From: an uncultured Acidobacteriota bacterium
GTDB lineage: Bacteria; Acidobacteriota; Terriglobia; Acidiferrales; UBA7541
Assembly: GCA_963789665.1 (NCBI GenBank)
Contig: CAWBLT010000015.1
Coordinates: 34,445-98,444, forward strand
Reading direction: 5' to 3'
DNA: 64,000 bases
Positions 1-22,816 of the stretch are shown here, in pieces; positions within the stretch are counted from its first letter, which is position 1, and every line of letters begins with the position of its first letter. Made by a program: the position numbers and the translations under genes. The notes below the pieces were generated by a model. It was given only the letters and a program-made list of their open reading frames with translations. It was not told where the DNA came from and did not search any database.

Positions 1-1
1 C

Positions 2-91
2 ATACTGATGTTCGTGGCGCTCAGCGCCTGTTTCATACCGGCGCGGCGGGCGATGCGCGTGGATCCGATGGTCGCGCTGCGATACGAGTAA
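2..91 (+). CDS. 3' end of an ADOP-family MacB/FtsX-type ABC permease (partial, runs off window start)
   Basis: The frame ending at TAA 89-91 reads ...[29 protein letters not shown]. This is the same last TM helix and [11 protein letters not shown] tail as the complete paralogs downstream. Confidence 0.85.
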   Translation: MLMFVALSACFIPARRAMRVDPMVALRYE

Positions 92-126
92 GCAGTAGCG
101 AATGATCGGTGACAAGTGAGGGGAAA

Positions 127-142
127 CGGCGGGTCTTTTGCT
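127..142 (+). promoter_or_regulatory. candidate sigma54 (-24/-12) promoter upstream of the first complete ADOP gene
   Basis: CGGCGGGTCTTTTGCT compared with consensus TGGCACG-N4-TTGCW. GG (128-129) and GC (140-141) have the correct spacing, and TTGCT is intact. It lies 37 nt upstream of ATG 179. A sigma54-type activator is encoded in the same cluster. Confidence 0.3.
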
Positions 143-178
143 CGTCACTGATCACTCGTCACTTTTTTAGGGGGTGCA

Positions 179-2656
179 ATGGGAACGTTGCTCCAGGATC
201 TGCGCTACGGAATCCGCATGTTGGCGAAGAGTCCGGGTTTCACCGCGCTGGCGGTCATCACCCTGGCGCTGGGAATCGGCGCGAACACCGCAATTTTCTC
301 CGTGATCAATTCCGTGGTGCTGCGTCCGTTGCCATTTCACGAACCAGGGCGGCTGGTGGCGCTCTGGGAAACTGAAAGCGCGCCAGGAAATTTCCCGCTG
401 ACCGGGCCCGATTATCTGGACTGGCAAGCGCAGAGTCGTACGCTCGAAGCCAGCAGTCTTTACACTTGGGACCGGACGGCTAACGCCAGCGGCTCCGGCG
501 AACCCCAGGCCGCTTCGGTGATCAGCACCCAGGCGAATTTTTTCGCGGTGCTCGGCGTGCAGCCGCAAATCGGGCGCGCCTTCGATCCCGGCGAAGATCA
601 GGCCGGGAAAAATCATGTGGCGATTCTGAGCAACGCCTTCTGGCAGAGGCAATTCGGCGGACGTTCCGACGTCTTGGGAAAAACCATCGAGTTGAACGAC
701 GAGCCCTACTTCGTTATCGGCGTGCTGCCCGCCTGGTTTAATTTTCAGCACGCGACGGAAATTTGGACGCCCATGGACATGACGCCCAAGGCGCTGGGGC
801 CGCGCGGTTCGCATTCCTATCGCGCGATTGCGAGGCTGCAAGCGAACGTCACCGCGGCACAGGCTCAGGCGGAACTCGCGGGCATCACCAAGCGGTTGGC
901 AAAACAGAATTCGAAAAGTGATGACATCAGCGGAGCCGTGGTCGTCTCTCTGACGGAGCAGCTGACCGGAGCATCCCGGCAAGGCCTTTTCATCCTGCTT
1001 GGCTCCGTGGCGCTGGTGCTGCTGGTGGCCTGCGCCAACGTGGCAAACCTGATGCTGGCGCGCGCCAGCAATCGCCAGCGTGAAATTGCCGTGCGCGCCG
1101 CGATGGGCGCCGGACGATGGCGGTTGGCGCGGCAACTGCTCACCGAAAGCATTTTGCTTTCTCTGCTCGGCGCCGCACTGGGGCTTTTGGGCGCGTTCTG
1201 GGCGGTATCGCTGCTGCAGTCGGCCGAAACCCTGCCAATTCCCCGCGCCAATCCCATCGAGATTGACGTAACGGTTCTGCTATTCACCATCGGCGTCAGT
1301 ATTCTGGTGGGCGCGCTATTTGGTCTGGCGCCCGCGATGCAGTCGTTCCACATGAATCTCAGCGACGAGCTCAAATCCAGCGCGCAAGCCGTGGTCAGCC
1401 CGTCCGGCACTCGCCGCTTGCTGCGCGATGCTCTGGTGGTCGGCGAAATTGCCGCTTCGCTGGCGTTGCTGATCGGCGCGGGCCTGCTGCTGCGCAGCTT
1501 TTCGCGCTTGCGTGATTCTGGAATCGGCGTGCAGACGGGAAACGTGATTACCATGGGCGTCAATCTGCCCGCAGCGAAATACAAGACGCTGCCGGCGCGC
1601 CGCCAGTTTTTTGACCAGCTGATTGAGCGCATTGAGGGCGAGCCGGGCGTGCAGGCAGCGGCGATCTCGACAGAAATTCCGCTGGAAGGAGGCAACAACG
1701 GGTATGTCACCGTGGCGGGGCAGGACAATCCGGCCCTCGCGACACAGCTGGTCGAATGGAACAACGTCACACCGAACTATTTTCGCGCGTATGGCGTGCC
1801 CGTTCTGCAGGGTCGCGTGTTCACGCCCGAAGAAGTAGAACGCACCGCGGTGGTGAATCTGAAAGTGGACGATCTTTATAAGAACGATCCGAACCTGAAA
1901 TCGCTGCCGCCGGATCTGGGATTTGTCGCCGTCATCAGCCGCAAAATGGCGCAATTGTATTGGCCGAAGCAGGACGCGCTGGGCAAAGTGTTTCAGGCGA
2001 GCGGCGTTCCGGTCACCGTCGTCGGCGTGGTTGGCGACGTGAAGGAATGGGACATTCGCGAGAATGTGGTTCCGCAAGCGTATTTCCCGCTCACGGCTGC
2101 TTTGGACAACGAAGGGATCGGCGCGCGATTGACGGTGAGGACGAGCGTGGCACCGCGCGGCGTCCTGACGGCGATTCGTCGAGACCTGCGCGCGCTCGAC
2201 GGCGGCCTGGCCGTGATTCACCCGCGCACCATGGACGAAGTCGTCGCCGATGCCATGCAGGACACCAGCGAGCAAACCATGCTGCTGGGCATTTTTGCCG
2301 CGCTCGCGCTGTTGCTGGCCGCCGTGGGGATTTACGGCGTGATGGCGTACGTGGTCACGCAACGTACGCACGAGATCGGTGTGCGCATGGCGCTGGGCGC
2401 GCAACAGCACGATGTGTTGCGGCTGGTGCTAGGCGAAGGCTCGCGGCTCACCGCCATCGGTGTCGCGCTCGGTCTGGCATGCGCTTTGGCTCTCACCCGA
2501 TTGCTGCGCGCGCTGCTTTTTGGGGTCAGCGCCAGCGATCCACTCACGTTCGCGGGAGTTTCCATCCTGCTCGCGCTGGTCGCAATGGCGGCGTGCTACA
2601 TCCCGGCGCGTCGCGCATCACGCGTGGATCCGATGGTGGCGCTGCGTTACGAGTGA
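179..2656 (+). CDS. ADOP-family MacB-like ABC transporter permease (FtsX domains plus large periplasmic domain)
   Basis: 825-aa ORF. N-terminus [39 protein letters not shown] (TM1), C-terminal FtsX-type TM bundle and the tail [17 protein letters not shown] sits 4-9 nt before the ATG. Confidence 0.93.
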
Positions 2657-2741
2657 CGATGCAGAGAATATCGTCAATATTCTGAACCGGCATCATGGCC
2701 GAAGGTTCTCTGTTTCGCCTAAAGTTTTCCAGGAGCTCAAG

Positions 2742-5186
2742 ATGGAAACCCTGCTGCAAGATATTCGCTACGGCATTCGCATGTTGGCGAAGAATCCCGG
2801 CTTCACGGCGATCGCCATTCTTACGTTGGCTCTGGGCATCGGCGCGAACACGGCAATTTTCTCGGTCGTTAACGCGGAGCTGCTGCGTCCGCTGCCCTTC
2901 CGCGATCCGGGCCAGTTGGTGCGGGTGGCCACTGCCAATGCGCGAATCCACACCGTGAGTGGCGCGGTTTCCTATCCCGATTTCGCGGACTGGCGCGCGC
3001 AAAATCGCGTTTTCCAGGATATGGCTGCGTATGTTGACTCCAGCTTCGCTCTCACCGGCATCGAGCAGCCCGCGCACCTGCAGGCTGCGAGCGTTTCCGC
3101 CGACATGTTCAACTTATTGGGAGTGTCGCCGGAATTGGGACGCGCGTTTTCACCGGACGATGACGAACCGCACCATCACGTTGTGATTCTGAGCCATGGT
3201 TTGTGGAAGGAGCGCTTCGGCGGCGATCCACAGATCATCGGCCGCGTGATCACTCTGGATAACAGCGCGTACACGGTGGTGGGCGTGATGCCCGCCAGCT
3301 TTGAGTATCTGCTGCAGCGCGAAACGCCGGCGCTATGGTCCAGCTTCAGTCCTTTGCGGGAATCTACCACTGATTCGCCGACGATGGCCGATCAGCGCGA
3401 TGCGCATTTCCTGCGCGTGATCGCGCGCATGAAGCCCGGCGTGACGGTGGCGGAGGCGCAAGCCAACCTAGACGTCATCACCACGGCGCTGGCTAAGCAG
3501 TATCCCGACAGCAACAAATATTCCAGCGCGAAGGTAGTTTCCGAGCAGGAAGAATTGACGCACAGCATCCGGCCGGCGCTGTTCCTGATGATGGTGGCGG
3601 TGGGATTTGTGCTGTTGATCGCCTGTGTGAACGTGGCGAATCTGTTGCTGGCGCGGGCCACTGCGCGCACGCGCGAAATCGCCATCCGTTCGGCGCTGGG
3701 CGCAGGACGCCAGCGCGTGATTCGCCAACTTCTCACCGAAAGTTTTCTGCTCGCGTTGGTGGCCGGTGTGCTGGGCCTGCTGCTGGCGATGTGGGGGAGC
3801 GCTGCGCTGGTGCGCTTCAGCCCCGCGAATTTACCGCGGCTCGCTGAAATTCGCGTGGACGGCTGGGTGCTGGCCTTCACCATGGGACTGTCTTTGGCCA
3901 CCGGAGTGTTTTTCGGTCTCGCTCCTGCTCTGCAAGTGTCGCATGGCAATATCGTGGACGCTTTGAAAGAAGGCGCGCTGAGCAGCACCGCGGGGCGCGG
4001 ACGCCATGCACTGCGGAGTTCTCTGGTGATCGTGGAAATGGCGTTGGCGCTGGTGCTGCTGGTGAGCAGCGGACTGCTGATTCGCAGCCTGGTGCATTTG
4101 CAGAACGTGAATCCGGGATTCGATCCGCACAACGTAATGACTTCCAACGTGGATTTGCCGGATGCCAAATATTCGGATGCAAAACGGGCGCAATATTTCA
4201 AGGACCTGATGCGGCAGCTCAAGGCGCTGCCCGGAGTGCAATCCGCCGCCGGCATCTATCCGCTGCCGATGGGCGGTGACGAAATCCGCACCGTTTTTCA
4301 GATTGATGGACATCCCGTGGCCAAAAGCGAGGAGCCGCACACTTCTCTGCGAGACATCACGCCGGATTACTTTGCCACCATGCGGATTCCCATTTTGCAG
4401 GGCCGCGATTTCGGCGCGCAGGATGAACCTGCTTCCACACCGGTCGTCATCATCAACGAGGCATTCGCGCGACAGATTTTCCCTGGTGAAAATCCAATCG
4501 GAAAACACATCAAGCCCGCGGTTGCCGGTGACACAGGCGAGCCGGTGATGCGCGAAATCGTGGGCGTGGTGGGCAACGTGAAGTTTCACGATTTGAGCGA
4601 CGAGTGGGCGCCCGAGTCCTACATCCCCTACGCGCAGATACCCTTCGGGTCTTTGACTCTGGTGGTGCGCACGGCGCAAGACGCCCACAGCCTCGCGAAG
4701 CCCATCGCCGAAACGGTCCGCTCGCTGGATAAAGACCTGCCCACTTACGCGCCGAAGACCGTCGACGAATATCTGAGTGGCACCATCGCACAGCCTCGCT
4801 TCAATACCTATCTGCTGGGAATTTTTGCGGCATTGGCCATGCTGCTCACGGCCGTCGGCCTGTACGGCGTGATTTCGTATTCGGTCGCACAGCGCACGCA
4901 TGAACTCGGCATCCGCATGGCCCTGGGCGGACAGCCGGGAGACATGCTGCGCCTGATTGTGGGCCAAGGTCTGCGTCTCGCGGCGTTTGGAGTCGGCATC
5001 GGTCTGGCCGCTGCCTTTGTGCTGACGCATTTTCTTTCCAGCATGCTCTTTGGCGTTAGCGCCGCCGACCCGATTTCCTACATCGCGGTAGTGGGCTTAC
5101 TCCTAACCGTCGTGATCGTCGCTTGCTTCGTGCCGGCCCGTCGGGCTATGCGTGTGGACCCGATGGTCGCACTTCGCTACGAGTAG
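2742..5186 (+). CDS. ADOP-family MacB-like ABC transporter permease
   Basis: The supplied ORF 2460-5186 overlaps the previous gene. The start is reassigned to ATG 2742 ([21 protein letters not shown]...), preceded by AGGAG at 2731-2735. The C-terminus is [12 protein letters not shown]. Confidence 0.92.
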
Positions 5187-5433
5187 ATCGCCCCCGGGAA
5201 TTATGCAGCCAGCGATGACCAAGAACTGTCGCGGCTTCGAAACTCGTACTGTCCGAAATCGCAACAAGCATTCCCGCAACTGGTCAGGCTCGGCCTCGCG
5301 GCGCGTCTATCGTGGCTTTAATCTATTGTAAGTACAGGCCTTATATTAATATTGGGCTGGAATCCCACCTGCCCATATTCGGGAGGCACCTGATAAGAAA
5401 ACTCTCCGCATCCAGCTGAGCGGGGCTCGAATC

Positions 5434-6651
5434 ATGAACATTATGACGCTCGAATCCACAACCGAAGCCGCTAAGACGCAGCCGCGAGTGCTCATCGCGG
5501 ACGATCAGCCCGACATTCTGGAGGCGCTACGACTGTTGTTAAAAGGACACGGTTACCTCACTGAGGCAGTCACTTCCCCGGCAGCTCTATTCGCCGCCGT
5601 TTCCCAAAATGGATTCGATCTGATATTGATGGACCTTAACTACGCTCGCGATACCACCTCTGGTCGCGAAGGCATTGATTTACTGGCGCGACTGAAAGCC
5701 ACCGAAAACGCGCCTCCGATCGTAGTGATGACCGGTTGGGCCACCGTTGGCCTGGCGGTGGAAGCGATGCAGCAGGGCGTCGGCGACTTCGTCGAGAAGC
5801 CCTGGGTGAATTCCCGGTTGCTCGAAATATTGCAGAAACAGGTGCAGATCGGCCGGGAGCGCCGCGACGCCCGGCAAAAAGCAGTGGCCCACACGATCGC
5901 GCAGACCGAAATTGCCTCGCAGCTTCACGCGCAGGACCGCGAGATCGCCGAAGCGCGCGCGATTCAGCAGGGGTTTCTGCCGAAAGATATTCCTCAATTG
6001 CAGGGATTCGAAATTGCGGGCGCCTGGCAGCCAGCGCGTGTGGTGGGCGGCGATTACTACGACGTGCTTCCATTCGGGCCAGAGACGCTGGGCATATGTA
6101 TCGGCGATGTCGCGGGCAAGGGTATGCCGGCGGCCCTGCTGATGTCTAACTTGCAGGCGGCTTTTCGAGGCTTCGCTTCCCCCGCGCTTGCTCCGGAAGA
6201 TCTGTGCGAGCGCCTGAATGCGCTGATCTGCCGCAATATCGCCACCGACCGCTTCATCACTTTTTTCTACGCGCAATTGGACGGTCCGGGCCGCCGGCTG
6301 CGTTACACCAACGCCGGGCACAATGCGCCAATTGTGTCGCATCGCGATGGCACGCATGATCGCCTGCTAGAAGGCGGCGGGATTCTCGGCGTGTTTCCCA
6401 TACAGGAGTTCTCCAGCGGCACCTACGACCTGGCGTCGGGCGACCGCGTGCTGCTTTTTACCGATGGCGTGACGGAAGCGCACGTTCCGGACGGCGAGGA
6501 ATTCGGCGAAGCCCGCTTGCTCGAGCTGCTCGAACAAAATCGCCATGCGAGCGCGGAAGATTTGCAAAAAATAGTTCTGCAAGCCGCGGGCGAATTTTGC
6601 CGCGGCCATTGGCATGACGACGCCACACTGATCGTCATTGCCGTTGAATAA
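5434..6651 (+). CDS. response regulator receiver domain fused to a PP2C/SpoIIE-type serine phosphatase (RsbU-like)
   Basis: 405 aa. The receiver reads RVLIADDQPDILEALRLLLK...DLILMDLNYARDTTSGREGIDLL...PIVVMTGW. The PP2C part reads VVGGDYYDV...CIGDVAGKGMPAALLMS...LLFTDGVTEA...DDATLIVI. Confidence 0.9.
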   Translation: MNIMTLESTTEAAKTQPRVLIADDQPDILEALRLLLKGHGYLTEAVTSPAALFAAVSQNGFDLILMDLNYARDTTSGREGIDLLARLKATENAPPIVVMTGWATVGLAVEAMQQGVGDFVEKPWVNSRLLEILQKQVQIGRERRDARQKAVAHTIAQTEIASQLHAQDREIAEARAIQQGFLPKDIPQLQGFEIAGAWQPARVVGGDYYDVLPFGPETLGICIGDVAGKGMPAALLMSNLQAAFRGFASPALAPEDLCERLNALICRNIATDRFITFFYAQLDGPGRRLRYTNAGHNAPIVSHRDGTHDRLLEGGGILGVFPIQEFSSGTYDLASGDRVLLFTDGVTEAHVPDGEEFGEARLLELLEQNRHASAEDLQKIVLQAAGEFCRGHWHDDATLIVIAVE

Positions 6652-6676
6652 ACCCGCGAACGAGCGAGGGAGCCGA

Positions 6677-9123
6677 ATGGGATCGCTGGCGCAAGACCTG
6701 AGTTTTGCGGTGCGCACGCTGCGGAAGAATCGCGGCTTCACCGCGGTCGCGGTCTTGACGCTGGCGCTCGGCATTGGCGGAAACGCCACGGTATTCAGCT
6801 GGATTCGCGCCGTGCTCCTGAATCCCCTGCCGGGCGTGGAGCATTCCGAGCAAATGATTTCCGTTGAAACGGTTATGCCCAGTGGCGAATATCACACCAG
6901 TTCGTACCCGGACTATAGGGATTTTCGCGATCAGAACCATGTCTTCTCCTCGCTTATCGGCTTCGAGCTCTCTGGCGTGGACATGAGCCTGCGCAACGAC
7001 GCGCCACCGGAGCGCGTCTGGGGAATCATCGCCACGGAAAATTATTTCGACGCGCTCGGCGTGCACGCCGCCATCGGGCGCACGTTTCATGCCGAGCCAA
7101 ATCAGGCGCTGAATTCGGATCCCTACATTGTCCTCGGCCAGAGTCTGTGGAAACGCCTCTTTGCCTCTGATCCGAAGGTCGTGGGCCGCACCGTGCATAT
7201 TAACGGGCACCCTTTCACGGTGATCGGAGTCGCGCCGCCGCGCTTTTTCGGAACCATCGTGGGCATTGACGCGCAGTACTTTGTTCCGATGATGATGCAG
7301 CCCGAAATACTCCCTTTCGAGGACATCGAGGAGCGCGCGCCGACTTTCGTGCACATCATTGGACGCCTGCGCCCAGGCGTAACGACCGCCCAAGCCCAGT
7401 CGGAATTCACAAGCATCGCCGCACATCTGGCGCAGGAATATCCCAATCCCAATGTCGGCAATGGCGTGGGGATTTACGTGGCGCCAGTATGGAAAGCGCA
7501 CTACGGCGTGCAGGATTTTCTGCGCAGCGTTCTCGGATTCCTGATGATCGTCGCCGTGCTGGTGCTGGTGATTGCCTGCGTCAACGTGGCGAATCTGCTG
7601 CTGGCTCGCGCTTCGGCACGTGAAAAAGAAATGGCGATGCGCGCGGCGCTGGGTGCCAGCCGCGGACGCCTGATTCGCCAGTTGCTCGTCGAAAGCCTGC
7701 TGCTGGCCGCTGCGGGCGGCGCTGGCGGAATCGTTCTGGCGTTGTGGGGCGCGAATCTTCTGAGCTTTTTCCTGCCGCCCGCGCATTTGCCCATCGGTTT
7801 GGAGCGCAGGTTGACGCGCCAGTTTTGATTTTCACGCTGATTCTTTCCGTCGTCACCGGGCTGGTGTTCGGGCTGGTTCCGGCGTGGCAAGCATCGCGGG
7901 CCAATCTGAATGAATCGCTGAAATCACGAACCGCGGCAACCGGCGCAAGCACCAGCAGCCACCGTTTGCGCGATGTTCTGGTGATATCGGAAATGGTGCT
8001 GGCCACGGTGTTGCTGGTTGCCGCCGGGCTTTTGCTGCGTAGCGTAGGCAAGGCGGAGCAAGCTGGCGCAGGCTACAACACGAATCACCTGACCCTCGCA
8101 GCTTTCGACTTGCGAGGCAGCGGCTATTCTGACGATCGCGCGATTGATTATTACGATCGCTTGCTCGAACGAGTGCGCGCTTATCCAGGAGTTGAATCGG
8201 CCAGCCTGGAACGCTTCGTCCCTCTGTGGTTCACGGGCCGCAGCTATTCGACTGCGCGGATCGAAGGCTATACTGCGAAACCCAACGAAGACATGGGCAT
8301 TGATTTGAACATCGTCGGCCCGGATTATTTCCGCACGGTGCAGATTCCGCTCGTTTCCGGCCGGGATTTTTCCGAACAGGATCGCTCCGGCGCGCCCAAA
8401 GTGGTGATCGTCAATCAAAGCATGGCGAATCGCTTCTGGCCCGGCCAGGACGCGACGGGGCATCGCGTGCACATCTGGAGCGATTGGCGCACGGTCGTGG
8501 GCGTGGTGCGCGATATCAAATATCACCGCATGAACGAGCCGCCGGAATCGTTCATCTATCTTCCGGAACTGCAAGCCGATGGAACGGATGCCAATATTTT
8601 GGTGCGCTCGCAATTGCCGCCGGCAACAGTCGTCAGCGACGTTCGAGTTGCAGCGCACTCGCTTGACTCCAAGGTACAGCCGCTCGAGACAGACACTCTC
8701 GACGGCCTGCTGAAGCAATCCATGTTCGCCAACCGCACCGCAGCATCGCTTGCTTCCGTGCTGGGAGTTCTGGGAACGCTGCTTGCGGCGTTGGGAATTT
8801 ACGGCGTGCTTTCGTACAGCGTGAGCCAGCGGATTCGCGAAATCGGCATTCGCATTGCCTTGGGCGCGCAACGAAGTCATGTCCTACGTCTTGTGGTGGG
8901 GCACGGGCTGCGTCTCGCGGTGTTGGGCGCTGGGCTTGGGGTGCTAGCCGCATTAGCAATTACGCGAGGAATGAGCAGTCTGCTGTTCGGAGTGAGCGCC
9001 ACGGATCCGCTTACTCTCGCCATCGTGTTGCTGACGGTCACTGCCGTAGCGACCCTGGCGGCATATATTCCAGCGCGCCGTGCGATGCGCGTGGACCCCA
9101 TGGTCGCGCTGAGATATGAATGA
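6677..9123 (+). pseudogene. ADOP-family permease interrupted by one frameshift near 7801 (pseudogene or sequence error)
   Basis: ORF 6638-7828 (best start ATG 6677, MGSLAQDLSFAVRTLRKNRGF) and ORF 7744-9123 are the N- and C-terminal parts of one permease. The homology path changes frame at ...LPIGL|GAQVDAPVLIFTLILSVVTG... around GG 7801-7802. The tail is [12 protein letters not shown]. Confidence 0.85.
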
Positions 9124-9241
9124 TGCTTATGCCGGCCGAGCGCGGAACGGCAGGTAGGAAGATGTGGTATTGCGTTCGGCTATTGCGACCGGGAACCACG
9201 AAGATGCCAGCCACACATCGCGCGCTTTAGGGAGATGAAAA

Positions 9242-9940: not shown

Positions 9941-9984
9941 CCGCGCGATCGTGCAGCAGTGGCGCAGTGAGCAAGGAGCTCGAG

Positions 9985-12465: not shown

Positions 12466-12470
12466 GAGCA

Positions 12471-14897: not shown

Positions 14898-15028
14898 CCG
14901 GCGCAAACAAAGGGAAGTCCGGGCGACGACACGCGCGGCGCATGGTATGGATTGGCCTGAGAGGTGGACATCAAGTGACGACGCAGTAAAATAGCCTGTC
15001 ACTTGGACGCTTCTTGGGGGCGAAAATT

Positions 15029-17488
15029 ATGGACACACTCTGGCAGGATTTACGTTATGGCGCGCGCATGCTGCGGCGAAACCCAGGTTTCGCGGCCGTT
15101 GCCATTCTGACGCTGGCGATCGGGATCGGGGCGAACATTGTGATTTTCAGCGTGGTCAATGGAATTTTGCTGAAACCGCTGCCGTTTCCGGAATCCCGTC
15201 GCGTCGTCACCATATGGGAGACGGACGCGAACCGCAACCTCACGCGCGGCACCGCTTCGGCCGCGGAATTCCTGGATTGGCGCGACATGAATCACGTTTT
15301 CCAGGAACTGTCGGCCTCCCGCGCGCTGTCTTTCGCGATTACGGGCAGCGGCGATCCCGAACAGGTCTGGGGTTCGCAAGTATCCGGGAATTTCTTTCGC
15401 CTGTTGCGCGTCGCTCCAATAATCGGCCGGGATTTTACGTCCGACGATGAACAGCCCGGTCATGAGCAAGTAGTCCTCTTGGGTTACGGATTGTGGCAGC
15501 GCCGCTATGGGGGTGATGCCGAAATTCTGGGCAAGACGATTCTGCTGGGTGAAAAGCCATTCACCGTGATCGGAGTCTTGCCGCGCAACTTCTCTCTTTA
15601 CGGCACACTGCCGGATTTCGAACTGTGGAAGCCATTCGCATTCGATCGCAGCCAACTCGATCGCGAAGATCACGAACTGGTAATTTTCGCGCGGCTCAAA
15701 GACGGCGTGCTGCTCTCCCAGGCCAACGCCGAAATGATCACCATTCAGGAGCAACTCAAAAAACAGTATCCAGCGTTCGACCAGAAGAATGGAATTCGCG
15801 TGGTCGGTTTCCACGATGAACTCGTCAGCACGCTCCGTCCCGGCCTGCTGCTTCTGCTGGCCGCCGTGGCATTTGTCTTGCTGATCGCTTGCGCGAATGT
15901 GGCGAACCTGATGCTCGCGCGCGCCGCCGTCCGCGAACGTGAAATCGCGCTACGCATTTCTCTGGGCGCGAGGCGGCAGAGAATTTTCCGGCAACTGCTG
16001 ACGGAAAGCGCGCTCCTGTCCCTGATCGGCGCGGCCATCGGTATTTTGTTCGCTTACGGCGGTATCCACATCGTGCGCGATGCCGTCATCTCCGGACAAG
16101 GCACGCGCATTCCTCACCCGGAATGGATTGCCATTGATGCCACGGTGCTGGGGTTCACGGTCCTGGTCGCTCTGGCCACTGGAATACTTTTTGGCTTTGC
16201 GCCGGCAATTCAGATTTCGCGCTCCGCCTTGTTCGAATCGCTGAAGGAAGGAAGCCGCGGCTCGACGGCCGGACGCCACAGCCAGCTGGCGCGTTCCGTG
16301 CTGGTCGTCTCCGAAGTGGCTTTTTCGCTCATGCTGCTGGTGGGAGCAGGCCTGCTGGTGCGCAGCTTCGCGCTGATGTTGGCCGAGCCGTTGGGATTCG
16401 ATCCCGAAAATTTATTGACCGCCCAAATGCTTCTGCCCGATTTGCGCTACGTGGACGGTCCGCGCATCTCGAATTTCTATCAGGCCGTCATAGAACACGT
16501 GAATGCAATCCCGGGCGTGAACTCGGCCAGCGCCGCCAATTTTCTGCCCTTAACCCGCTGGAGCGCGTTTTGCGATTTCGATATCGCCGGCCGCGCGGCT
16601 CCGCCCTCGGGTGAGCATTTCACGGCTCAATACCGCGTCGCGGACTGGCGCTATTTATCCACCATGGATGTTCCGGTGAAGGAAGGCCGCAACTTCACTT
16701 CTGACGACGGGTCCGATTCGCAGGGCGTCGCGCTCGTCAATGAAGCCCTCGCGCGCCGCTATTGGCCCAACGCGGATCCCGTCGGCCAGCAGATCCGCCT
16801 GATCTTTAACGCGACCAGGACTCCTTGGGAGCCCATCCCACGCCAGGGCTGGGTCACAATTGTAGGAGTCGTCGGCGACATCAAGGACTGGGCTTGGTCC
16901 GAACCGAAATCCGGGCAGCTTTATTTGCCGGCAACGCAGAATCCTTCGCGGCTGATGAGCCTGGTGGTGCGCTCTCGCGTGGATCGCGCGCAATTAACCG
17001 CCGCTGTGCGCCACGCCGTCGAAACCGTAGATCCGAATCAGCCCATCACCGATGCGAAGATGATGGAAGACTATCTCGCGGTGGCTTTCTCGCAGCGCCG
17101 TCTGAATATGTCGCTGCTGGCATTTTTCGCGGTGGTGGCCGCGCTGCTCGCAGCCATCGGGATTTATGGAGTGATGGGCTACGCCGTCACGCAGCGCTCG
17201 CACGAAATCGGCATTCGCATGGCCCTGGGCGCCGAACCAGGCGACGTGCTGCGCATGATCGTCGGCGACGGGATGAAACTGGCGTTACTGGGCCTGGTGA
17301 TCGGGATCACGGCTTCGCTGCTGCTGATGAAATATCTGGAGAGCCAGCTTTACGGCGTCAAGGCCCGCGACCCGCTCACCTTCATCGCTGTGGCGGCCGG
17401 ACTGGCGCTGGTGGCGCTGGCCGCCTGCTATTTTCCGGCGCGGCGCGCCACGAAAGTGGATCCATTAGTAGCGTTACGCTACGAGTGA
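15029..17488 (+). CDS. ADOP-family MacB-like ABC transporter permease
   Basis: ATG 15029 (MDTLWQDLRYGARMLRRNPGF) is preferred over TTG 15014. A GGGGG run lies 8 nt upstream. The tail is TKVDPLVALRYE. Confidence 0.92.
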   Translation: MDTLWQDLRYGARMLRRNPGFAAVAILTLAIGIGANIVIFSVVNGILLKPLPFPESRRVVTIWETDANRNLTRGTASAAEFLDWRDMNHVFQELSASRALSFAITGSGDPEQVWGSQVSGNFFRLLRVAPIIGRDFTSDDEQPGHEQVVLLGYGLWQRRYGGDAEILGKTILLGEKPFTVIGVLPRNFSLYGTLPDFELWKPFAFDRSQLDREDHELVIFARLKDGVLLSQANAEMITIQEQLKKQYPAFDQKNGIRVVGFHDELVSTLRPGLLLLLAAVAFVLLIACANVANLMLARAAVREREIALRISLGARRQRIFRQLLTESALLSLIGAAIGILFAYGGIHIVRDAVISGQGTRIPHPEWIAIDATVLGFTVLVALATGILFGFAPAIQISRSALFESLKEGSRGSTAGRHSQLARSVLVVSEVAFSLMLLVGAGLLVRSFALMLAEPLGFDPENLLTAQMLLPDLRYVDGPRISNFYQAVIEHVNAIPGVNSASAANFLPLTRWSAFCDFDIAGRAAPPSGEHFTAQYRVADWRYLSTMDVPVKEGRNFTSDDGSDSQGVALVNEALARRYWPNADPVGQQIRLIFNATRTPWEPIPRQGWVTIVGVVGDIKDWAWSEPKSGQLYLPATQNPSRLMSLVVRSRVDRAQLTAAVRHAVETVDPNQPITDAKMMEDYLAVAFSQRRLNMSLLAFFAVVAALLAAIGIYGVMGYAVTQRSHEIGIRMALGAEPGDVLRMIVGDGMKLALLGLVIGITASLLLMKYLESQLYGVKARDPLTFIAVAAGLALVALAACYFPARRATKVDPLVALRYE

Positions 17489-17497
17489 GGAGGTTGG

Positions 17498-19939
17498 ATG
17501 GGTGCTTTTCTACAGGACGTGAAATACGGCGTGCGCGTGCTGGCGAAGAATCCCGGGTTCACAATCGTCGCTGTGGTCACGCTTGCTCTGGGCATCGGCG
17601 CGAATACCGCCATGTTCAGCGCCGTAAATGGAATTTTGCTCCGTCCGCTGCCCTATAAAGATTCCAGCCGGCTCGTGGACGTCTGGGGAAACTCAGCAAA
17701 CTATCCCGGATTCCGCATGACCCTCTCCCTGCCGGAGTTCAACGATGTCAAAGCGCAAAGCCAATCTTTCGAAAGCATCGCTTCGTACCATCTTAACGAG
17801 ATGAGCTGGACGGGGCACGGTGACCCCGAAGTCGTTTCGGTCACTGAGATTTCGCGAGACGTCTTTGCGACCTTGGGAGTCTCACCGGTTCGCGGACGGG
17901 CATTTACTGCCGACGAGGAAGTTCCCGGCAAAGACCATGTGGTGATTTTGAGTGACGCCTTGTGGAAGGCTCGTTTTGACGGCGAAACGGCTGTTCTCGG
18001 GAAGACAATTACGCTCGATGGCTCAACTTATACGGTTGTCGGAATTATGGCGCAGGGATTTCAATTTCAAAGTGATGACGACGATTTACCGCAGGTATGG
18101 AAGCCTCTCGCCCCGTCCGCCAAAATCGCCGCAGGACGCACGCAGCGCCAAGCTCTCGTGATTGCTCGCTTGCGACGTGGCGCCAGTCTCCAGCGGGCTC
18201 AGGCGGAAGTGCAAACCATTGCCGCGCGCATGGACAAAGCCTATCCCAAGGAAGACGAAGGTCAGGGTTTGTTCCTAACCACGATGAAACAGGGCGTTGT
18301 GGCCGAGGTTCGGCCCGCGCTGCTAATTCTTCTCGCTGCCGTCGGCTTCGTCCTGCTGATAGCCTGCGTGAATGTCGCCAACTTGTTTCTAGCGCGCAGT
18401 TGGAAACGCAGACGCGAAATCGCGGTTCGCGCCGCGCTCGGCGCCACGCGCGCCCGGCTTATCCGCCAGTTGCTGGTGGAGAGCGTCCTTCTGGCGATTG
18501 CAGGAGGGTTGGCAGGGCTCGCGGTCGGAACTTGGGGCGTTGACATTATGCGCAGGTTCGCTCCGGCCGATACGCCGCGCCTCGCGGAGATCGGTCTTGA
18601 CTACACGGTGTTCTGGTTCACTTTGGCTGTCTCCATCCTGACGGGAATCGCATTTGGACTTGCTCCCGCGTTGCACGCTTCCCGGCTGGATCTCAACGCC
18701 ACGCTGAAAGATGGCGTGGCAATTTCAGGATCGAGTAACGGCCTGCGCGGGCATCATCGCCTTCGTTCGTTGCTGGTGGTTAGTGAAGTCGCTCTAGCGG
18801 TGGTGCTGCTCGTCGGCGCCGCTCTCATGCTGAAGAGCTTCTCACGCTTGACTCACTCCAACCCGGGCTTTCGTACAGACCATGCGCTCACAGCTGAAAT
18901 CTCGCTTCCCACGGCAAAATACAACTCCGAGGAAGAGCAGCGTGAATTTTTCGACGGCCTGTTGAGCCGCATCCGGCGTCTGCCGGGCGTGCAAAGCGCG
19001 GCTCTGATGACGATGCCCTTCCTGGGCGACTACTTGAGCATGACGGAGTTTTCCATCGAAGGTAAACCCGCGAAAGATCCAAGTTACGAACCATATTTCG
19101 AAATGGAAGCGATCAGCCCGGACTATTTTCAGGCCGCTGGCATTCCTCTGCTCGCGGGGCGTACGTTCTCCGAGAGTGACACCAAAGACAGTCCCGGCGT
19201 CGTAATCGTGAACGAAACACTGGCGCGGCGTTATTGGCCCGCAGGCCAGGCGATTGGTAAACGCTTGAGCCGGGAAACCGACAAGGACGGGCACCCTCTT
19301 TGGTTGGAGGTCGTCGCGATTGCCAGGGATACGCGCGACGTAAATCTCATGACGCTTCCCAAGGCGGAGATCTATCTTCCGTCTTCGCAAGCCGCTTCGG
19401 CGTCCATGAACATTCTGGTGCGTGCCAAGAGTGATGCCAGCGTGCTGGAGCCTGCGATCCGCGATGCGGTTTGGGCTATCGATCGCGATCAACCAGTTCA
19501 ATCGATCGCGACGCTCGAGGAAGCCGTGGCGCGCTCCGAGGCCGAACCACGATTCCACACAATACTGCTCGGGGTCTTTGCCGCGCTGGGCCTGACGATA
19601 ACGCTGGTCGGAATTTACGGTGTGATTTCCTATTCCGTCAGCCAACGTACGCGCGAGATCGGAATCCGCATGGCGCTGGGCGCGCAATCGCGCGACGTGC
19701 TGCGCCAAGTGTTGCGGGAGGGCATGAAGCTGGCGCTCGCGGGTCTAGCGATCGGAATTATCGCTGCGTTAGCGCTCACGCGCGTGCTGGCGTCGCTGCT
19801 ATTCGAAGTTCGCGCGACGGATCCCGCGACGTTTGTGATGGTCGCCAGCTTACTCGCCTGCGTCGCATTCGCTGCATGCTATCTACCTGCGCGGCGCGCC
19901 ACGAAAGTGGATCCGTTGGTGGCGCTGCGCTATGAATGA
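17498..19939 (+). CDS. ADOP-family MacB-like ABC transporter permease
   Basis: 813 aa. N-terminus MGAFLQDVKYGVRVLAKNPGF, tail TKVDPLVALRYE. GAGGAGG overlaps the previous stop. Confidence 0.93.
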   Translation: MGAFLQDVKYGVRVLAKNPGFTIVAVVTLALGIGANTAMFSAVNGILLRPLPYKDSSRLVDVWGNSANYPGFRMTLSLPEFNDVKAQSQSFESIASYHLNEMSWTGHGDPEVVSVTEISRDVFATLGVSPVRGRAFTADEEVPGKDHVVILSDALWKARFDGETAVLGKTITLDGSTYTVVGIMAQGFQFQSDDDDLPQVWKPLAPSAKIAAGRTQRQALVIARLRRGASLQRAQAEVQTIAARMDKAYPKEDEGQGLFLTTMKQGVVAEVRPALLILLAAVGFVLLIACVNVANLFLARSWKRRREIAVRAALGATRARLIRQLLVESVLLAIAGGLAGLAVGTWGVDIMRRFAPADTPRLAEIGLDYTVFWFTLAVSILTGIAFGLAPALHASRLDLNATLKDGVAISGSSNGLRGHHRLRSLLVVSEVALAVVLLVGAALMLKSFSRLTHSNPGFRTDHALTAEISLPTAKYNSEEEQREFFDGLLSRIRRLPGVQSAALMTMPFLGDYLSMTEFSIEGKPAKDPSYEPYFEMEAISPDYFQAAGIPLLAGRTFSESDTKDSPGVVIVNETLARRYWPAGQAIGKRLSRETDKDGHPLWLEVVAIARDTRDVNLMTLPKAEIYLPSSQAASASMNILVRAKSDASVLEPAIRDAVWAIDRDQPVQSIATLEEAVARSEAEPRFHTILLGVFAALGLTITLVGIYGVISYSVSQRTREIGIRMALGAQSRDVLRQVLREGMKLALAGLAIGIIAALALTRVLASLLFEVRATDPATFVMVASLLACVAFAACYLPARRATKVDPLVALRYE

Positions 19940-19948
19940 GGAAACCAC

Positions 19949-21388
19949 ATGACCTATGCATCCGACGTTTCAACGAACGAGACCGGCGGTAAAATTCAGG
20001 GAGAACCCTTTCGCGCCATGATGCCAGCCAACGCACCACGAACTCGCATTCTCGTAGCCGACGATCAGCCGGATATCCGCGAGGCTTTGCGGCTGTTGTT
20101 GAAAGGCGAAAAATTTGAGACGGAGACGGTCGCTTCGCCGGCCGCGGTCATGTCCGCGCTGGAGGCGCGCGAGTTCGACGCGCTTCTGATGGACTTGAAT
20201 TACGCGCGCGACACCACTTCCGGCCAGGAGGGCCTGGATCTGCTTTCGAATATTCGCGCGAAAGACAGCACACTGCCCATCATCGTCATGACCGCCTGGG
20301 GCAGTCTGGAACTCGCCGTCGAAGCCATGCGTCGCGGCGCGAAAGACTTCGTGCAGAAGCCCTGGGAAAACGCGCGATTGCTCGCGATCCTGAAAACGCA
20401 GATCGAGCTTTCGCAGGCGTTGCGCAAAGGCCAGCGCCTGGAAGCGGAAAATCGCTTGTTGCGCGCGGATGGCCGCCCGGTGATGATCGCCGAATCCGCG
20501 TCCATGCGTCCGGTGATGGATCTGATCGCGCGCGTGGGCCCTTCGGATGCGAACGTTTTGATCACGGGCGAGCACGGCAGCGGCAAGGAAGTCGTGGCGC
20601 GAACTCTCTACGCGCTTTCTTCGCGCTCCGGCCGGCCGCTGGTCACGGTGAATGCCGGAGGGTTGCCCGAAGGCGTGTTCGAAAGCGAACTGTTCGGCCA
20701 CGTGAAAGGCGCGTTCACCGATGCGAAAGCAGATCGCGTGGGCCGCTTCGAGCTTGCCGATGGCGGCACGCTGTTCCTGGACGAAATTGCCAACGTGCCC
20801 ATGAATCTGCAGGCCAAGCTGCTGCGCGCTTTGGAGACCGGCGAGCTGGAGCGCGTCGGCTCCTCCACCACGCGCCGCGTGGACGTGCGCATTATTTCGG
20901 CGACGAACGCGGACGTGCAAACTGAAGTGAGCGGCGGACGCTTCCGGGAGGATTTGCTGTTTCGCTTGAATACCATCGAAATCCATCTGCCGCCTTTGCG
21001 CGAACGCAAGGAAGACATTCCGCTGCTGGCGCACCATTTCCTGCGGCAATCCGCGCAACGCTATCGCAAGCAGCTCGAAGGGTTCGAGCCGGTGGCACTG
21101 CAGATTTTGCTGGATCATCCCTGGCCCGGAAATATTCGCGAGCTGGACCATTCCGTCGAACGCGCCGTGCTCATGGCCGAAGGTTCCGCCGTCCGCGCGA
21201 GCGATCTGGGTTTGCGTCCCGCCCGCGAGGCCGCTCTGCGGTTGGACGAAATGAGCATCGAAGACGTCGAGCGCGTGCTGATCCAGAAAGCGCTGGCGCG
21301 TTTTGGCGGCAACGTAAGCCACGCCAGCAAGGCCCTGGGCTTGAGCCGCAGCGCCCTCTACCGCCGTTTACAGAAATATAGCCTTTGA
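19949..21388 (+). CDS. sigma54-dependent (NtrC-family) response regulator: receiver + AAA+ + Fis-type HTH
   Basis: 479 aa. Receiver RILVADDQPDIREALRLLLK...MDLNYARDTTSGQEGLDLL. Walker A GEHGSGKE, ELFGHVKGAFTDA (GAFTGA-loop variant), LFLDEI, and a C-terminal HTH ASKALGLSRSALYRRLQKY. Confidence 0.93.
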   Translation: MTYASDVSTNETGGKIQGEPFRAMMPANAPRTRILVADDQPDIREALRLLLKGEKFETETVASPAAVMSALEAREFDALLMDLNYARDTTSGQEGLDLLSNIRAKDSTLPIIVMTAWGSLELAVEAMRRGAKDFVQKPWENARLLAILKTQIELSQALRKGQRLEAENRLLRADGRPVMIAESASMRPVMDLIARVGPSDANVLITGEHGSGKEVVARTLYALSSRSGRPLVTVNAGGLPEGVFESELFGHVKGAFTDAKADRVGRFELADGGTLFLDEIANVPMNLQAKLLRALETGELERVGSSTTRRVDVRIISATNADVQTEVSGGRFREDLLFRLNTIEIHLPPLRERKEDIPLLAHHFLRQSAQRYRKQLEGFEPVALQILLDHPWPGNIRELDHSVERAVLMAEGSAVRASDLGLRPAREAALRLDEMSIEDVERVLIQKALARFGGNVSHASKALGLSRSALYRRLQKYSL

Positions 21389-22704
21389 CGCCTCTGCTCT
21401 ATGAACGCCGGATCTTGCTGCTGGCCCTGGCCGCGGGGCTGGGCGGCACGCTTGTAGCTCTGATTCTGCTGTGGACGGGAAGTTTTTCCTCCAAGCTGCA
21501 GTGGACCCTGACGGTGGCGATGGTCATCACCTGGCTCAGCTTTGCATTTTCGGCGCAAAGCCGCGTCATGTTTCCCTTGCGCACGCTTTCGAACCTGCTC
21601 GCGGCGCTGCGTGAAGGGGATTTTTCCATTCGCGCGCGCGGCGCGAATCGCGAAGACGTGCTCGGCGAAGTGCTGTGGGAAGTAAACGCGCTGGGTGAAA
21701 CGCTGCGCAAGCAGAGGCTCGGCGCGCTGGAAGCCACCGCGCTGCTGCGCAAGGTAATGGAGGAAATTGACGTCGCGGTCTTTGCATTCGACGGCGCGGG
21801 CTGTCTGCGCCTGGTGAATCGCGCGGGCGAACGCATCCTCAGCCAGCCGGAGGATCGCATTCTCGGACACACCGCGATCGAGTTGGGACTTTCGGAATGC
21901 CTGGAAGGCGAAACGCCGCGCATCGCGCAAATCGCTTTTCCGGGAAAATCCGGACGCTGGGAAATTCACCGCGGAAGTTTTCGCGAAGCCGGGCTGCCGC
22001 ACCAGTTGCTGGTGATCACCGATTTAAGCCGCGCCTTGCGTGACGAAGAGCGCCAGGCCTGGCAACGCCTGATCCGCGTCCTCGGCCACGAACTGAATAA
22101 TTCTCTCGCGCCCATCAAATCGGTCGCGGAGAATTTGGGCAGCATGCTCGGTCGCGAAGATCGCGCGCCGGATTGGCAGGAAGACATGCGCAGCGGCCTC
22201 AACGTGATCGCCGCACGCACCGATGGCCTGGCGCGTTTCATGAACGCCTACGCGCGGCTGGCCAAGCTTCCGCCGCCGGTTTTTCAGCCGATGAATGTCG
22301 GCGTGTGGGTGCGCCGTGTGGTGGGACTGGAGCCGCGCCTCCCCGTGCAGCTGCAAGCCGGCCCCGAGACCGAAATTCAAGCCGATCCCGATCAGCTCGA
22401 GCAGCTATTGATCAATCTGCTGCACAACGCCGTGGACGCCGCGCTGGAAACGGGCGGCGGCGTGCGCGTGGGATGGGAACGCCAGAACGGCAGCATCGAA
22501 GTGTGGGTTCAGGATGACGGCCCGGGAATTCCCAGCGCCGCGAATCTTTTCGTGCCATTTTTCACAACCAAGCAGGGAGGCTCGGGAATCGGTCTGGTTC
22601 TGAGCCGGCAGATCGCCGAAGCCCACGGCGGCTCGCTCACTCTTGAGAATCGCCCCACGCATCGTGGCTCCGAAGCTCGTCTGCGCCTCCCGCTCAGTAA
22701 TTAG
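21385..22704 (+). CDS. sensor histidine kinase (2 TM + HAMP-like + PAS-like + HisKA + HATPase; NtrY-like layout)
   Basis: 439 aa. H-box LGHELNNSLAPIKS, N-box LLHNAVDA, G1 DDGPGI, G2 GGSGIGLVLSRQIAEAHGG. The TTG start overlaps the regulator's stop (TTGA). Confidence 0.88.
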   Translation: MTPLLYERRILLLALAAGLGGTLVALILLWTGSFSSKLQWTLTVAMVITWLSFAFSAQSRVMFPLRTLSNLLAALREGDFSIRARGANREDVLGEVLWEVNALGETLRKQRLGALEATALLRKVMEEIDVAVFAFDGAGCLRLVNRAGERILSQPEDRILGHTAIELGLSECLEGETPRIAQIAFPGKSGRWEIHRGSFREAGLPHQLLVITDLSRALRDEERQAWQRLIRVLGHELNNSLAPIKSVAENLGSMLGREDRAPDWQEDMRSGLNVIAARTDGLARFMNAYARLAKLPPPVFQPMNVGVWVRRVVGLEPRLPVQLQAGPETEIQADPDQLEQLLINLLHNAVDAALETGGGVRVGWERQNGSIEVWVQDDGPGIPSAANLFVPFFTTKQGGSGIGLVLSRQIAEAHGGSLTLENRPTHRGSEARLRLPLSN

Positions 22705-22794: not shown

Positions 22795-22816
22795 CGTTCA
22801 GAGGAGGAGAACTCGT

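Follow-up and report, generated by a model that had tools for sequence, protein, structure and literature searches.

Permeases of the ADOP family (TIGR03434, "acidobacterial duplicated orphan permease") owe their name to the absence of neighboring ATPase genes. In soil Acidobacteriota they form one of the largest sets of paralogs, and as far as we know they have been given neither partner proteins nor a function. Here, we describe an array of such permeases in a 64-kb stretch of DNA from an uncultured Acidobacteriota bacterium (contig CAWBLT010000015.1, positions 34,445 to 98,444; hereafter, the window). Window positions 1–22704 are the 3′ two-thirds of a single co-oriented cluster of ~36 kb in an acidobacterium of the Candidatus Acidiferrales type (Terriglobia). 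Read across the window and a sister contig that extends it upstream, this cluster holds 11 ADOPs, two ATPases, and one adaptor, all on one strand. Downstream of bipA, the order is HlyD-family adaptor, ATPase-2, four ADOPs (the last of which stops at window 2–91), two further ADOPs, a receiver–phosphatase fusion (REC-PP2C), one ADOP, ATPase-1, four ADOPs, an NtrC-type activator, and a histidine kinase (Table 1).

When every open reading frame (ORF) of the window is scanned with hidden Markov models (HMMs), we observe eight plus-strand ADOPs, three minus-strand ADOPs, and exactly one MacB-type ATPase, with no HlyD orthologue in the 64 kb; no outer-membrane-factor family was recovered among the window ORFs scanned against Pfam. 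The intact permeases of the array score 931–1037 bits against TIGR03434 (cut-off 622, or 622.3 to one decimal) and each contains two MacB_PCD (PF12704) and two FtsX (PF02687) domains; intact ADOP genes as a whole score 880–1037 bits, and the pieces of each of two split genes sum to >880 bits. A preliminary description of this DNA had listed eight same-strand permease genes of the ADOP/MacB type accompanied by their own signaling genes. Its coordinates and gene calls are essentially right, the family assignment holds well above the cut-off, and the signaling genes are present as REC-PP2C, sigma-54 activator, and histidine kinase. The close spacing that it emphasized is seen at three junctions of 5–9 nt (12465/12471, 17488/17498, and 19939/19949) in a tandem, operon-like layout that includes a 4-nt overlap of the NtrC and kinase genes, whereas the remaining gaps are 25–247 nt. 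Scans for sigma-70 promoters and terminators inside the array gave counts at chance level.

Table 1. Features of the ADOP cluster and of the second ADOP locus, in window coordinates.
Feature	Position	Strand	Evidence
ADOP C-terminal fragment (29 codons + stop)	2–91	+	ADOP HMM positions 780–808; 819-aa gene in L083
ADOP, 825 aa, orthogroup G	179–2656	+	TIGR03434 931 bits; 2× MacB_PCD, 2× FtsX; orthologues 87–90%
ADOP, 814 aa, orthogroup D	2742–5186	+	TIGR03434 1036 bits; protein used for AlphaFold2 model
Sigma-54-like −24/−12 element GGAATCCCACCTGCC, candidate internal promoter	5359–5373	+	~75 nt 5′ of REC-PP2C
REC-PP2C: receiver fused to PP2C/SpoIIE phosphatase, 405 aa	5434–6651	+	Pfam Response_reg, SpoIIE
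ADOP, orthogroup B, frame-split in window	6677–9123	+	Two ORFs = HMM positions 1–358, 354–803
ATPase-1: stand-alone MacB/LolD-type ABC nucleotide-binding protein, 232 aa	9242–9940	+	Pfam ABC_tran
ADOP, orthogroup H, frame-split; start TTG 9985 or GTG 9967	9985–12465	+	Orthologues 92–94%
ADOP, 808 aa, orthogroup F	12471–14897	+	TIGR03434 1016 bits; orthologues 89%
ADOP, 819 aa, orthogroup A	15029–17488	+	TIGR03434 984 bits; orthogroup n = 28
ADOP, 813 aa, orthogroup R (rare)	17498–19939	+	TIGR03434 998 bits; one orthologue, 74%
NtrC-type activator: REC + Sigma54_activat (AAA+) + Fis-type HTH	19949–21388	+	Pfam, NCBIfam
Histidine kinase, N-terminal membrane anchor, weak PAS match	21385–22704	+	Pfam HATPase_c
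14-bp GC-rich hairpin at 3′ end of cluster, before convergent gene	22764–22795		Terminator scan
ADOP, prefix-like N-terminus interrupted by indel	46873 to ~49590	−	
ADOP with permease-prefix (perm_prefix_1, NF038403 tested on this one)	49614–52316	−	
ADOP with N-terminal permease-prefix domain	52383–55049	−	
PadR-family regulator, 111 aa	55107–55442	−	

The array continues 5′ of the window on the sister contig (ena:ERZ25039497:contig_30753, 132,513 bp), which matches window 1–19937 at 99.0% identity with 16 gap openings (locus L001). On the same strand, and in the order bipA, HlyD adaptor P0314 (417 aa), ATPase-2 (237 aa), and ADOPs of 817, 609 + 141 (frameshifted), 858, and 819 aa, this upstream neighborhood (L083) supplies the head of the array, and its 819-aa ADOP runs into window 2–91. 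Window position 1 corresponds to position 28970 of the sister contig, and the adaptor lies at 16745–17998, ~11–12 kb before the window start. The route to the head led from an orthologous fragment to a related locus (L082), through an adaptor search to P0314, and from there to the L083 neighborhood, with P0314 sitting on the very contig that carries L001. The exact proteins encoded at 179–2656 and 2742–5186 are both absent from the record, and when the C-terminal piece at window 2–91 was used to look for homologues, only short fragments came back, not the 819-aa gene.

Related loci have the same organization. A second ATPase, 42% identical, is often found at the 5′ end of the array, directly preceded by a 417–455-aa protein with HlyD_3 and HlyD_D23 domains; both Pfam models match the adaptor orthologues of L020 and L039. 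P0314 itself scores 91.5 bits against RND_mfp (cut-off 94.9), and its nearest solved protein is MacA. The head of L082 reads bipA, barrel-sandwich adaptor, ATPase-2, and then ADOPs, and an equivalent head is present in L020, L082, and ~35 other loci. The gene directly 5′ of the adaptor is bipA/typA, encoding a translational GTPase, in all three Acidiferrales-type loci that show the cluster head (L020 1995–3830, L082 1–673, and L083 7968–9800), while an RDD/SpoIIM protein takes its place in the Gemmatimonadota locus L056. No TolC/OEP gene is found among the called genes of L083, L001, and L082; the OEP partner gene may be unlinked, as tolC is in E. coli.

The preliminary description had headlined a single ATPase with no adaptor and no TolC-like gene. 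One ATPase (9242–9940) and no adaptor are indeed what the window contains, but this is because the window edge cuts the array: with ATPase-2 and an HlyD adaptor heading the array on the sister contig, the headline is refuted for the cluster as a whole. What it said of TolC holds both in the window and upstream; a search for adaptor and outer-membrane-factor genes beyond the edge returns the former and not the latter. More generally, a claim of a missing partner is unsafe whenever the feature in question touches the window edge.

In the window sequence as it stands, two of the eight array genes are interrupted: the one at 6677 by a −1 frameshift (1-nt deletion) after 7803, and the one at 9985 by three 1-nt insertions (11620, 11711, and 11740) within 130 nt. 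If these breaks were real, the split permeases would be true pseudogenes of a redundant paralog family, and the array would be decaying, which we find scarcely credible. The sister contig carries an extra T at the 7803 point, giving an intact 815-aa gene, and lacks all three inserted bases of the 9985 gene; it instead has different indels of its own, in REC-PP2C, the 9985 gene, and the 17498 gene. Reading the three frames of the 9985 gene in turn yields a protein that is perfectly colinear with its paralogs with zero residues lost, and compared with their orthologues, both split genes have ratios of nonsynonymous to synonymous substitution rates (dN/dS) of 0.03–0.24 per domain. Unrelated genes of the window are also broken by single-base indels: the prefix of the ADOP at 46873–49407 (break at ~49,400–49,600) carries on in another frame (MRPKHWIYTLPLRLRSLF...), and a GH2 glycosidase (~59,700–59,900) is split over ORFs 57731–59917 and 59703–60758. 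Fragmented and frameshifted genes are likewise common throughout the related loci, many of which are metagenome-assembled genomes labeled "MFD...". The breaks inside and outside the array suggest that the window is an error-prone assembly. Since the sister contig is free of the four indels, they are most likely assembly errors, and we treat all eight genes as intact in vivo. Frameshifts in long-read metagenome assemblies should not be taken for pseudogenes.

To describe the permeases themselves, we combined hydropathy with an AlphaFold2 model of the protein encoded at 2742–5186 (predicted local distance difference test score of 85, predicted template modeling score of 0.79). In the model, the N-terminal half consists of an amphipathic helix, transmembrane helix 1 (TM1), periplasmic domain 1 (~49–267), TM2, a coupling helix (310–318), TM3, and TM4, while the C-terminal half, reached through a poorly conserved linker, consists of TM5, periplasmic domain 2 (~455–682), TM6, a second coupling helix (719–727), TM7, TM8, and a C-terminal helix. 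An ADOP thus has eight TM helices, two stalk-mounted periplasmic domains of ~220 aa, and two coupling helices on the cytoplasmic side, and it lacks a built-in ATPase domain. The preliminary description had envisaged one periplasmic middle of ~500 aa; what we find are two periplasmic domains separated by a conserved core of membrane and coupling helices. Pfam and the model agree on an internal duplication in which two FtsX modules each follow a MacB-like periplasmic domain. In Foldseek searches of the PDB, the top match is E. coli YbbP (9GE6_A, full length, E = 1.8e-20), and the individual halves match MacB, the 5XU1 permease, LolE/LolC, BceB, YtrF, and HrtB, all of these hits, that of YbbP included, having a probability of 1.00; a sequence search of the PDB also returns MacB for each half. 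The 4-TM units with their stalk helices, the periplasmic domains of the Porter/Sabre kind, and a coupling helix placed between TM2 and TM3 are those of the type VII fold of ATP-binding cassette (ABC) transporters, and a cognate ATPase of the MacB/LolD/FtsE clade with intact catalytic motifs is present. Since YbbP matches over the full length and MacB and its relatives match each half, ADOPs are pseudo-dimers of the MacB (type VII ABC) fold in a single chain.

Divergence among the paralogs follows this architecture. The seven full tandem paralogs share 36–45% pairwise identity, and the three minus-strand ADOPs are 31–40% identical to them and to one another. Among the tandem seven, mean pairwise identity is highest in the C-terminal helix (0.85), followed by coupling helix 2 (0.67), coupling helix 1 (0.61), the N-terminal helix (0.54), and the TM helices (0.52), and is lowest in periplasmic domain 1 (0.32), periplasmic domain 2 (0.29), and the TM4–TM5 linker (0.29). 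The contrast drawn in the preliminary description between conserved motor-coupling ends and variable periplasmic parts therefore stands (0.54–0.85 versus 0.29–0.32). The N-terminal, coupling, and C-terminal helices are also conserved in the PadR-linked ADOPs of the window.

When 218 full-length ADOPs are compared all against all, the identities fall into two modes, one of paralogs (30–45%) and one of orthologues (≥52%). Each window paralog falls in its own orthogroup, with orthologues in other species that are 74–94% identical. Against these, dN/dS is 0.07 in the N- and C-terminal membrane parts and 0.10 in both periplasmic domains and the central core. By these measures, the divergence of the paralogs is ancient, and purifying selection acts throughout; because the orthologues remain so similar and periplasmic dN/dS is only ~0.10, the pattern is one of maintained specialization and not of ongoing diversification. 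The preliminary description had favored the latter for the ligand-facing domain and proposed per-domain dN/dS as a check, which returns purifying selection in every domain (0.07–0.10), of the same order in periplasmic domains and membrane core. Its full model, a self-contained adaptor-less array of eight permeases served by a single ATPase and actively diversifying in the periplasm, does match the presence of one MacB-type ATPase and no HlyD or TolC-like gene in the 64 kb, as well as the position of the periplasmic domains as the least conserved parts among paralogs. Given that the 99%-identical contig adds the adaptor, another ATPase, and four further ADOPs, that related genomes have similar heads, and that orthologues are constrained, we consider that model highly improbable.

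To place the cluster in a wider context, we took a census of 80 species-level loci fetched through ATPase-1, with 10-kb flanks. ADOPs lie within 10 kb in 66 of the 80 loci, NtrC follows ATPase-1 or the ADOPs in 47 and is accompanied by the kinase in 37, and ATPase-2, REC-PP2C, and HlyD are found in 40, 37, and 35 loci, respectively. Loci without ATPase-2 or HlyD are mostly those in which the array overruns the 10-kb flank; where the 5′ end of the array is visible, both are present in most loci (exceptions include L034, L054, and L058). A kit of HlyD, ATPase-2, ATPase-1, NtrC, and kinase recurs in Acidobacteriota and Gemmatimonadota. Many Gemmatimonadota loci consist of these five genes in this order with no ADOP within 10 kb (ATPase-1 68–75% identical), and in one of them, L056 (CP070666.1), the minimal kit was confirmed by Pfam. 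In L056, a Hanks-type Ser/Thr kinase gene (8875–9915) lies between ATPase-2 and ATPase-1, where Acidobacteriota often have REC-PP2C, a hint that Ser/Thr phosphorylation contributes to controlling the system. The gene order is rearranged in L031, L036, L038, and L044, yet ATPase-1, HlyD, and ATPase-2 still form one short cluster (directly adjacent in L036 and L038), and the ADOPs beside these rearranged kits carry the N-terminal prefix domain typical of PadR-linked "orphans". In L070, a single ADOP is flanked by ATPase-1 on one side and ATPase-2 on the other.

Both ATPases are the slowest-evolving components of the cluster: mean identity is 92.6% for ATPase-1 where it is 69.0% for the orthogroup-A ADOP, and 79.7% for ATPase-1 where it is 58.2% for HlyD. 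ATPase-1 has >120 clusters (90% identity level) at ≥88% identity, several of them named Candidatus Acidiferrales, an order within the Terriglobia of the Acidobacteriota. Its best NCBIfam match is DarD (245 bits, below the cut-off of 375), and its nearest solved relatives are the ATP-binding subunit of 5XU1, MJ0796, the MacB nucleotide-binding domain, BceA, and YbbA. The catalytic motifs of ATPase-1 are canonical and invariant across 81 orthologues, and the Walker A, Q-loop, signature, Walker B-Glu, and H-loop motifs are canonical in both ATPases in nearly all loci. Degenerate motifs, which we considered as a sign of a heterodimer, were therefore uninformative.

The same census bears on whether ADOPs are transporters at all. 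They could be mechanotransducers in the manner of FtsEX–EnvC, with each periplasmic pair switching a different enzyme or partner. The type VII family does include the non-transporting FtsEX and the enzyme-coupled YbbAP–TesA (PMC12646458), YbbP is the top structural match, and no outer-membrane factor gene is found nearby. The HlyD adaptor at the head of the cluster is, however, the hallmark of the efflux-type members, and the 80 loci contain no conserved periplasmic enzyme gene, only occasional DNA_alkylation or cytochrome c inserts; we regard this alternative as improbable. The inserts account for the ~1-kb gaps in related arrays that we had considered as hidden adaptors. A gene for a DNA_alkylation-repair-like HEAT protein (PF08713) interrupts the array at L012 10688–11707, and similarly in L010, L013, L017, L021, L025, and L027, while one for a reaction-centre-type cytochrome c (PF02276) does so at L033 6158–7315 and, similarly, at L040 6120–7268; neither has an obvious link to transport.

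The regulatory genes of the cluster suggest how it may be switched on. The activator has REC, Sigma54_activat, AAA-lid, and HTH_8 domains in Pfam. The kinase has TM1 at residues 10–28, a loop of ~9 residues, and a second hydrophobic stretch at ~41–58 that stays below the hydropathy threshold, and a periplasmic sensor domain would not fit in. Upstream of the adaptor gene, a GGAAT-N5-TTGCGAT element recurs 30–45 nt before the start codon in three intergenic regions that have otherwise diverged. Some 80–110 nt 5′ of this sigma-54-like element lies a conserved block of ~40 nt, GTCCGATAGCGGGACGnATGATTCCCA, with the motif GGGA-N8-TCCC (L083 9849–9890, L020 ~3915–3958, and L082 ~771–814), which could be an enhancer that binds the NtrC-type activator. 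Over a larger set, GG-N8-TTGC occurs 36–70 nt before HlyD in 14 of 33 loci compared to 2.8 (maximum 9) in shuffles; HlyD heads the cluster in all 14, and the canonical GGCAT-N5-TTGC occurs in both Acidobacteriota and Gemmatimonadota. A second element, GG-N8-CTGCC, lies ~75 nt before REC-PP2C (window 5359–5373); its offset is constant over ~30 related loci, and the spacer bases vary among them.

Internal ADOP genes show neither sigma-54 enrichment nor positional clustering, with a relaxed match before 36 of 207 at roughly uniform positions. Within the window, a scan for TGGCAC-N5-TTGCW with ≤2 mismatches gave 39 matches where 38 were expected, none of them intergenic in the array, and the informative sigma-54-like elements emerged only from comparing orthologous upstream regions. 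A sigma-54-like match at window 128 is conserved only as far as the sister contig, and we make no claim for it. At the level of sequence, the REC/Sigma54_activat/HTH_8 activator and the conserved promoter-like elements before HlyD and REC-PP2C point to a sigma-54 regulon.

Taken together, we favor a reading, with a probability of roughly 0.6, in which the cluster encodes a sigma-54-controlled battery of alternative MacB-fold permeases that have their ATPases and adaptor in common. Transcription would start from sigma-54-type promoters before the adaptor gene and before REC-PP2C, switched on by the NtrC-type regulator and sensor-less kinase of the cluster itself, with REC-PP2C as a second output. 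By analogy with YbbA2–YbbP (PMC12646458), each ADOP would dock two nucleotide-binding subunits. Because there are 11 permease genes to two ATPase genes and one adaptor gene, the ATPases would be shared by the alternative permeases, unless further ATPases are encoded elsewhere in the genome, and the adaptor is probably shared by at least some ADOPs. The strong conservation among paralogs of the N-terminal, coupling, and C-terminal helices, taken as a putative docking surface, and the slow evolution of both ATPases agree with such sharing. ATP-driven closing of the ATPase dimer would be relayed through the coupling helices to the periplasmic domains, as in MacB-type mechanotransmission, and these would then expel or extract a periplasmic or outer-leaflet substrate; judging by the fold, such mechanotransmission would act on the periplasmic side, and the substrate itself would not cross the membrane. 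Export would run, at least in part, via the HlyD adaptor and into an outer-membrane channel whose gene lies elsewhere. The choice of substrate would be set by the pair of periplasmic domains, distinct in each paralog and conserved within an orthogroup; our guess is that substrates are envelope-active toxins or peptides, or else lipids and exported products.

Several observations weigh against the shared-component battery. An outer-membrane factor gene is absent from the 64-kb window, from the 22 kb upstream on the sister contig, and from the loci examined. The adaptor and ATPase-2 are read on a 99%-identical sister contig and not in the window's own sequence, and the pairing of ADOPs with either ATPase or with the adaptor is predicted from the co-occurrence of their genes. 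The putative docking motifs are conserved over the whole MacB/FtsX superfamily and are therefore a weak argument for a common partner, and a higher conservation of ATPase than of membrane domains is the general rule anyway. The sigma-54 motif precedes only 14 of 26 cluster-heading HlyD genes. Finally, the promoter-like element before REC-PP2C and the stable synteny of the array fit two units as well as one machine.

This last point leads to the alternative of two side-by-side systems. The make-up of the arrays differs between genomes through gain, loss, and reordering of orthogroups, with A being the most widely conserved and, as a rule, closing the ADOP series before NtrC. Placement relative to the ATPases is stable: between ATPase-2 and ATPase-1 for orthogroups E, K, N, C, G, D, and B, and after ATPase-1 for A, H, F, I, P, and R. 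Unit 1 would then be a MacAB-like tripartite set of HlyD, an ATPase-2 homodimer, and the ADOPs before REC-PP2C, while unit 2 would be an adaptor-less set of REC-PP2C, an ATPase-1 homodimer, the later ADOPs, NtrC, and kinase, acting as a LolCDE-, YbbAP-, or BceAB-like extractor or sensing-and-detoxification module. Besides the synteny and the conserved sigma-54-like element before REC-PP2C, this division would agree with the use of an ATPase homodimer by all solved fused or heterodimeric type VII systems (PMC12646458), with the fully canonical motifs of both ATPases, and with a kinase that lacks a periplasmic sensor domain, as in Bce-type modules. If it is right, the earlier claim of one ATPase without an adaptor applies to unit 2, and may thus be true of a second transcription unit starting at the 5359–5373 element. 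On the other side, HlyD, ATPase-2, and ATPase-1 remain linked across two phyla and through rearrangements, they occur as minimal cassettes (HlyD–ATPase-2–ATPase-1–NtrC–kinase and ATPase-1–HlyD–ATPase-2), a single ADOP is flanked by both ATPases in L070, and the regulator pair is encoded once per locus. The three-way linkage and L070 fit one machine, and we consider two systems a real possibility, though clearly the less probable one.

A bolder reading joins these elements: HlyD, ATPase-2, and ATPase-1 would form an engine that acts in trans for all ADOPs of the genome, including the PadR-linked ones. The two ATPases would pair as an obligate heterodimer, ATPase-1 with ATPase-2, in keeping with the non-identity of the two halves of an ADOP, and the kinase would sense flux, reading transporter activity in Bce style to drive sigma-54 transcription. 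We put this forward tentatively and think it rather unlikely as a whole; we know of no obligate ATPase heterodimer among type VII ABC systems. A common engine in trans would, if true, explain why the ADOP family has looked orphan.

The PadR-linked ADOPs form a second locus in the window (46873–55442, minus strand), where a PadR regulator is followed by three ADOPs with no ATPase, the classical "orphan" context. Their permease prefix is ~80 aa long. Orthologues of the 49614–52316 ADOP that are 70% identical adjoin ATPase-1, HlyD, and ATPase-2 in L031, L036, and L044. Elsewhere in the window, we observe two very large outer-membrane beta-barrel proteins (38058–42101, plus strand, and 60805–63972, minus strand; OMP_b-brl_4, TonB-dependent-receptor-like, one with CarboxypepD_reg) and, just 3′ of the cluster, a TonB C-terminal-domain protein (24580–25641) and a DegP/HtrA-type protease (25984–27492), none of them with an established connection to the ADOP cluster. 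A minus-strand gene at 22817–24583, convergent with that of the kinase, encodes a 588-aa protein with a signal-peptide-like N-terminus, a poly-Q C-terminus, and no Pfam family.

The interest of the cluster lies in the candidate partners and regulators that it offers for a large family hitherto taken to be orphan, whose members thereby gain a regulatory handle as well. It suggests many interchangeable specificity modules on few motors, and the kit is sometimes encoded without any permease nearby. With the genes defined, the partner idea can be tested by co-expression, pull-downs, and multimer prediction.

The TIGR03434 family and its expansion in Acidobacteriota are already known. All eleven permeases of the window (eight plus-strand and three minus-strand) pass the family model, with two MacB_PCD and two FtsX domains in ~810–900 aa, and large paralogous sets are typical of Acidobacteriota. 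The "orphan" status applies to the PadR-linked trio but not to the array: ATPase-1 is embedded in the array, ATPase-2 lies upstream on the sister contig, and the array is part of a kit of two ATPases, HlyD adaptor, and sigma-54 two-component system. We found no literature description of the adaptor, two-ATPase, and NtrC/kinase kit, of its permease-less occurrence, or of the 8-TM direct-fusion variant, in a search that left subscription journals mostly outside. A precedent is a 42-kb cluster of Psychroflexus torquis with about ten tandem ADOP paralogs alongside further transporter genes, some of them ATP-binding, for which high protein-level expression was reported and a role in efflux proposed (Feng et al. 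2014, PMC3914696). That cluster differs in belonging to a member of the Bacteroidota and in lying on a genomic island, and the accessible part of the report describes no adaptor/two-ATPase/NtrC–kinase kit, orthogroup structure, or promoter analysis (PMC3914696).

Among characterized exporters, the darobactin exporter DarBCD (NF038007, NF038008, and NF038010) also combines a duplicated FtsX-type permease with a separate ATPase and an HlyD adaptor. Its models are the closest in NCBIfam for both ATPases and weak matches for the adaptor and permeases, but all scores fall below the cut-offs (DarD 245 and 262 versus 375, DarB ≤39 versus 700, and DarC 58 versus 450), and the ADOP cluster has no ribosomally synthesized peptide (RiPP) precursor or radical-SAM gene nearby. 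BceAB–BceRS (PDB 7TCG, 8G3A) likewise couples a type VII permease and ATPase to a two-component system with a kinase that lacks an extracytoplasmic sensor domain, and BceA is among the nearest solved relatives of ATPase-1. BceB, however, has 10 TM helices, including two linker helices (PMC5985334), and one extracellular domain, and the module has a single permease, no adaptor, and an OmpR-type regulator in place of sigma-54/NtrC, so that the sensor-less kinase is the sole resemblance at the level of the module.

With MacAB–TolC (PDB 5NIK; PMC5985334), the cluster shares the membrane and periplasmic fold of each ADOP half, an ATPase like the MacB nucleotide-binding domain, an HlyD/MacA-like adaptor (seen on the sister contig as P0314 and in ~35 related loci, not in the window), and, presumably, mechanotransmission. 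MacB pairs two identical 4-TM chains that each carry a fused N-terminal ATPase domain, whereas an ADOP has all 8 TM helices and two non-identical periplasmic domains on one chain, with the ATPases as separate proteins; here, a single adaptor stands beside eleven alternative permeases, and no TolC-like gene turned up in the vicinity. YbbAP–TesA of E. coli (PDB 9GE6–9GE8; PMC12646458) differs in having a TesA hydrolase, no adaptor, and one permease per ATPase gene, and YbbP has 10 TM helices with two linker helices (PMC12646458) where ADOP has 8 TM helices in a direct fusion. Identity between YbbP and ADOPs is 12–14%, the YbbP model NF041854 scores 26–28 bits on ADOPs (cut-off 999), and no TesA-like gene was seen. 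Both permeases are pseudo-symmetric single chains that have a pair of periplasmic domains and a pair of coupling helices, and YbbP binds two copies of a separate ATPase (PMC12646458).

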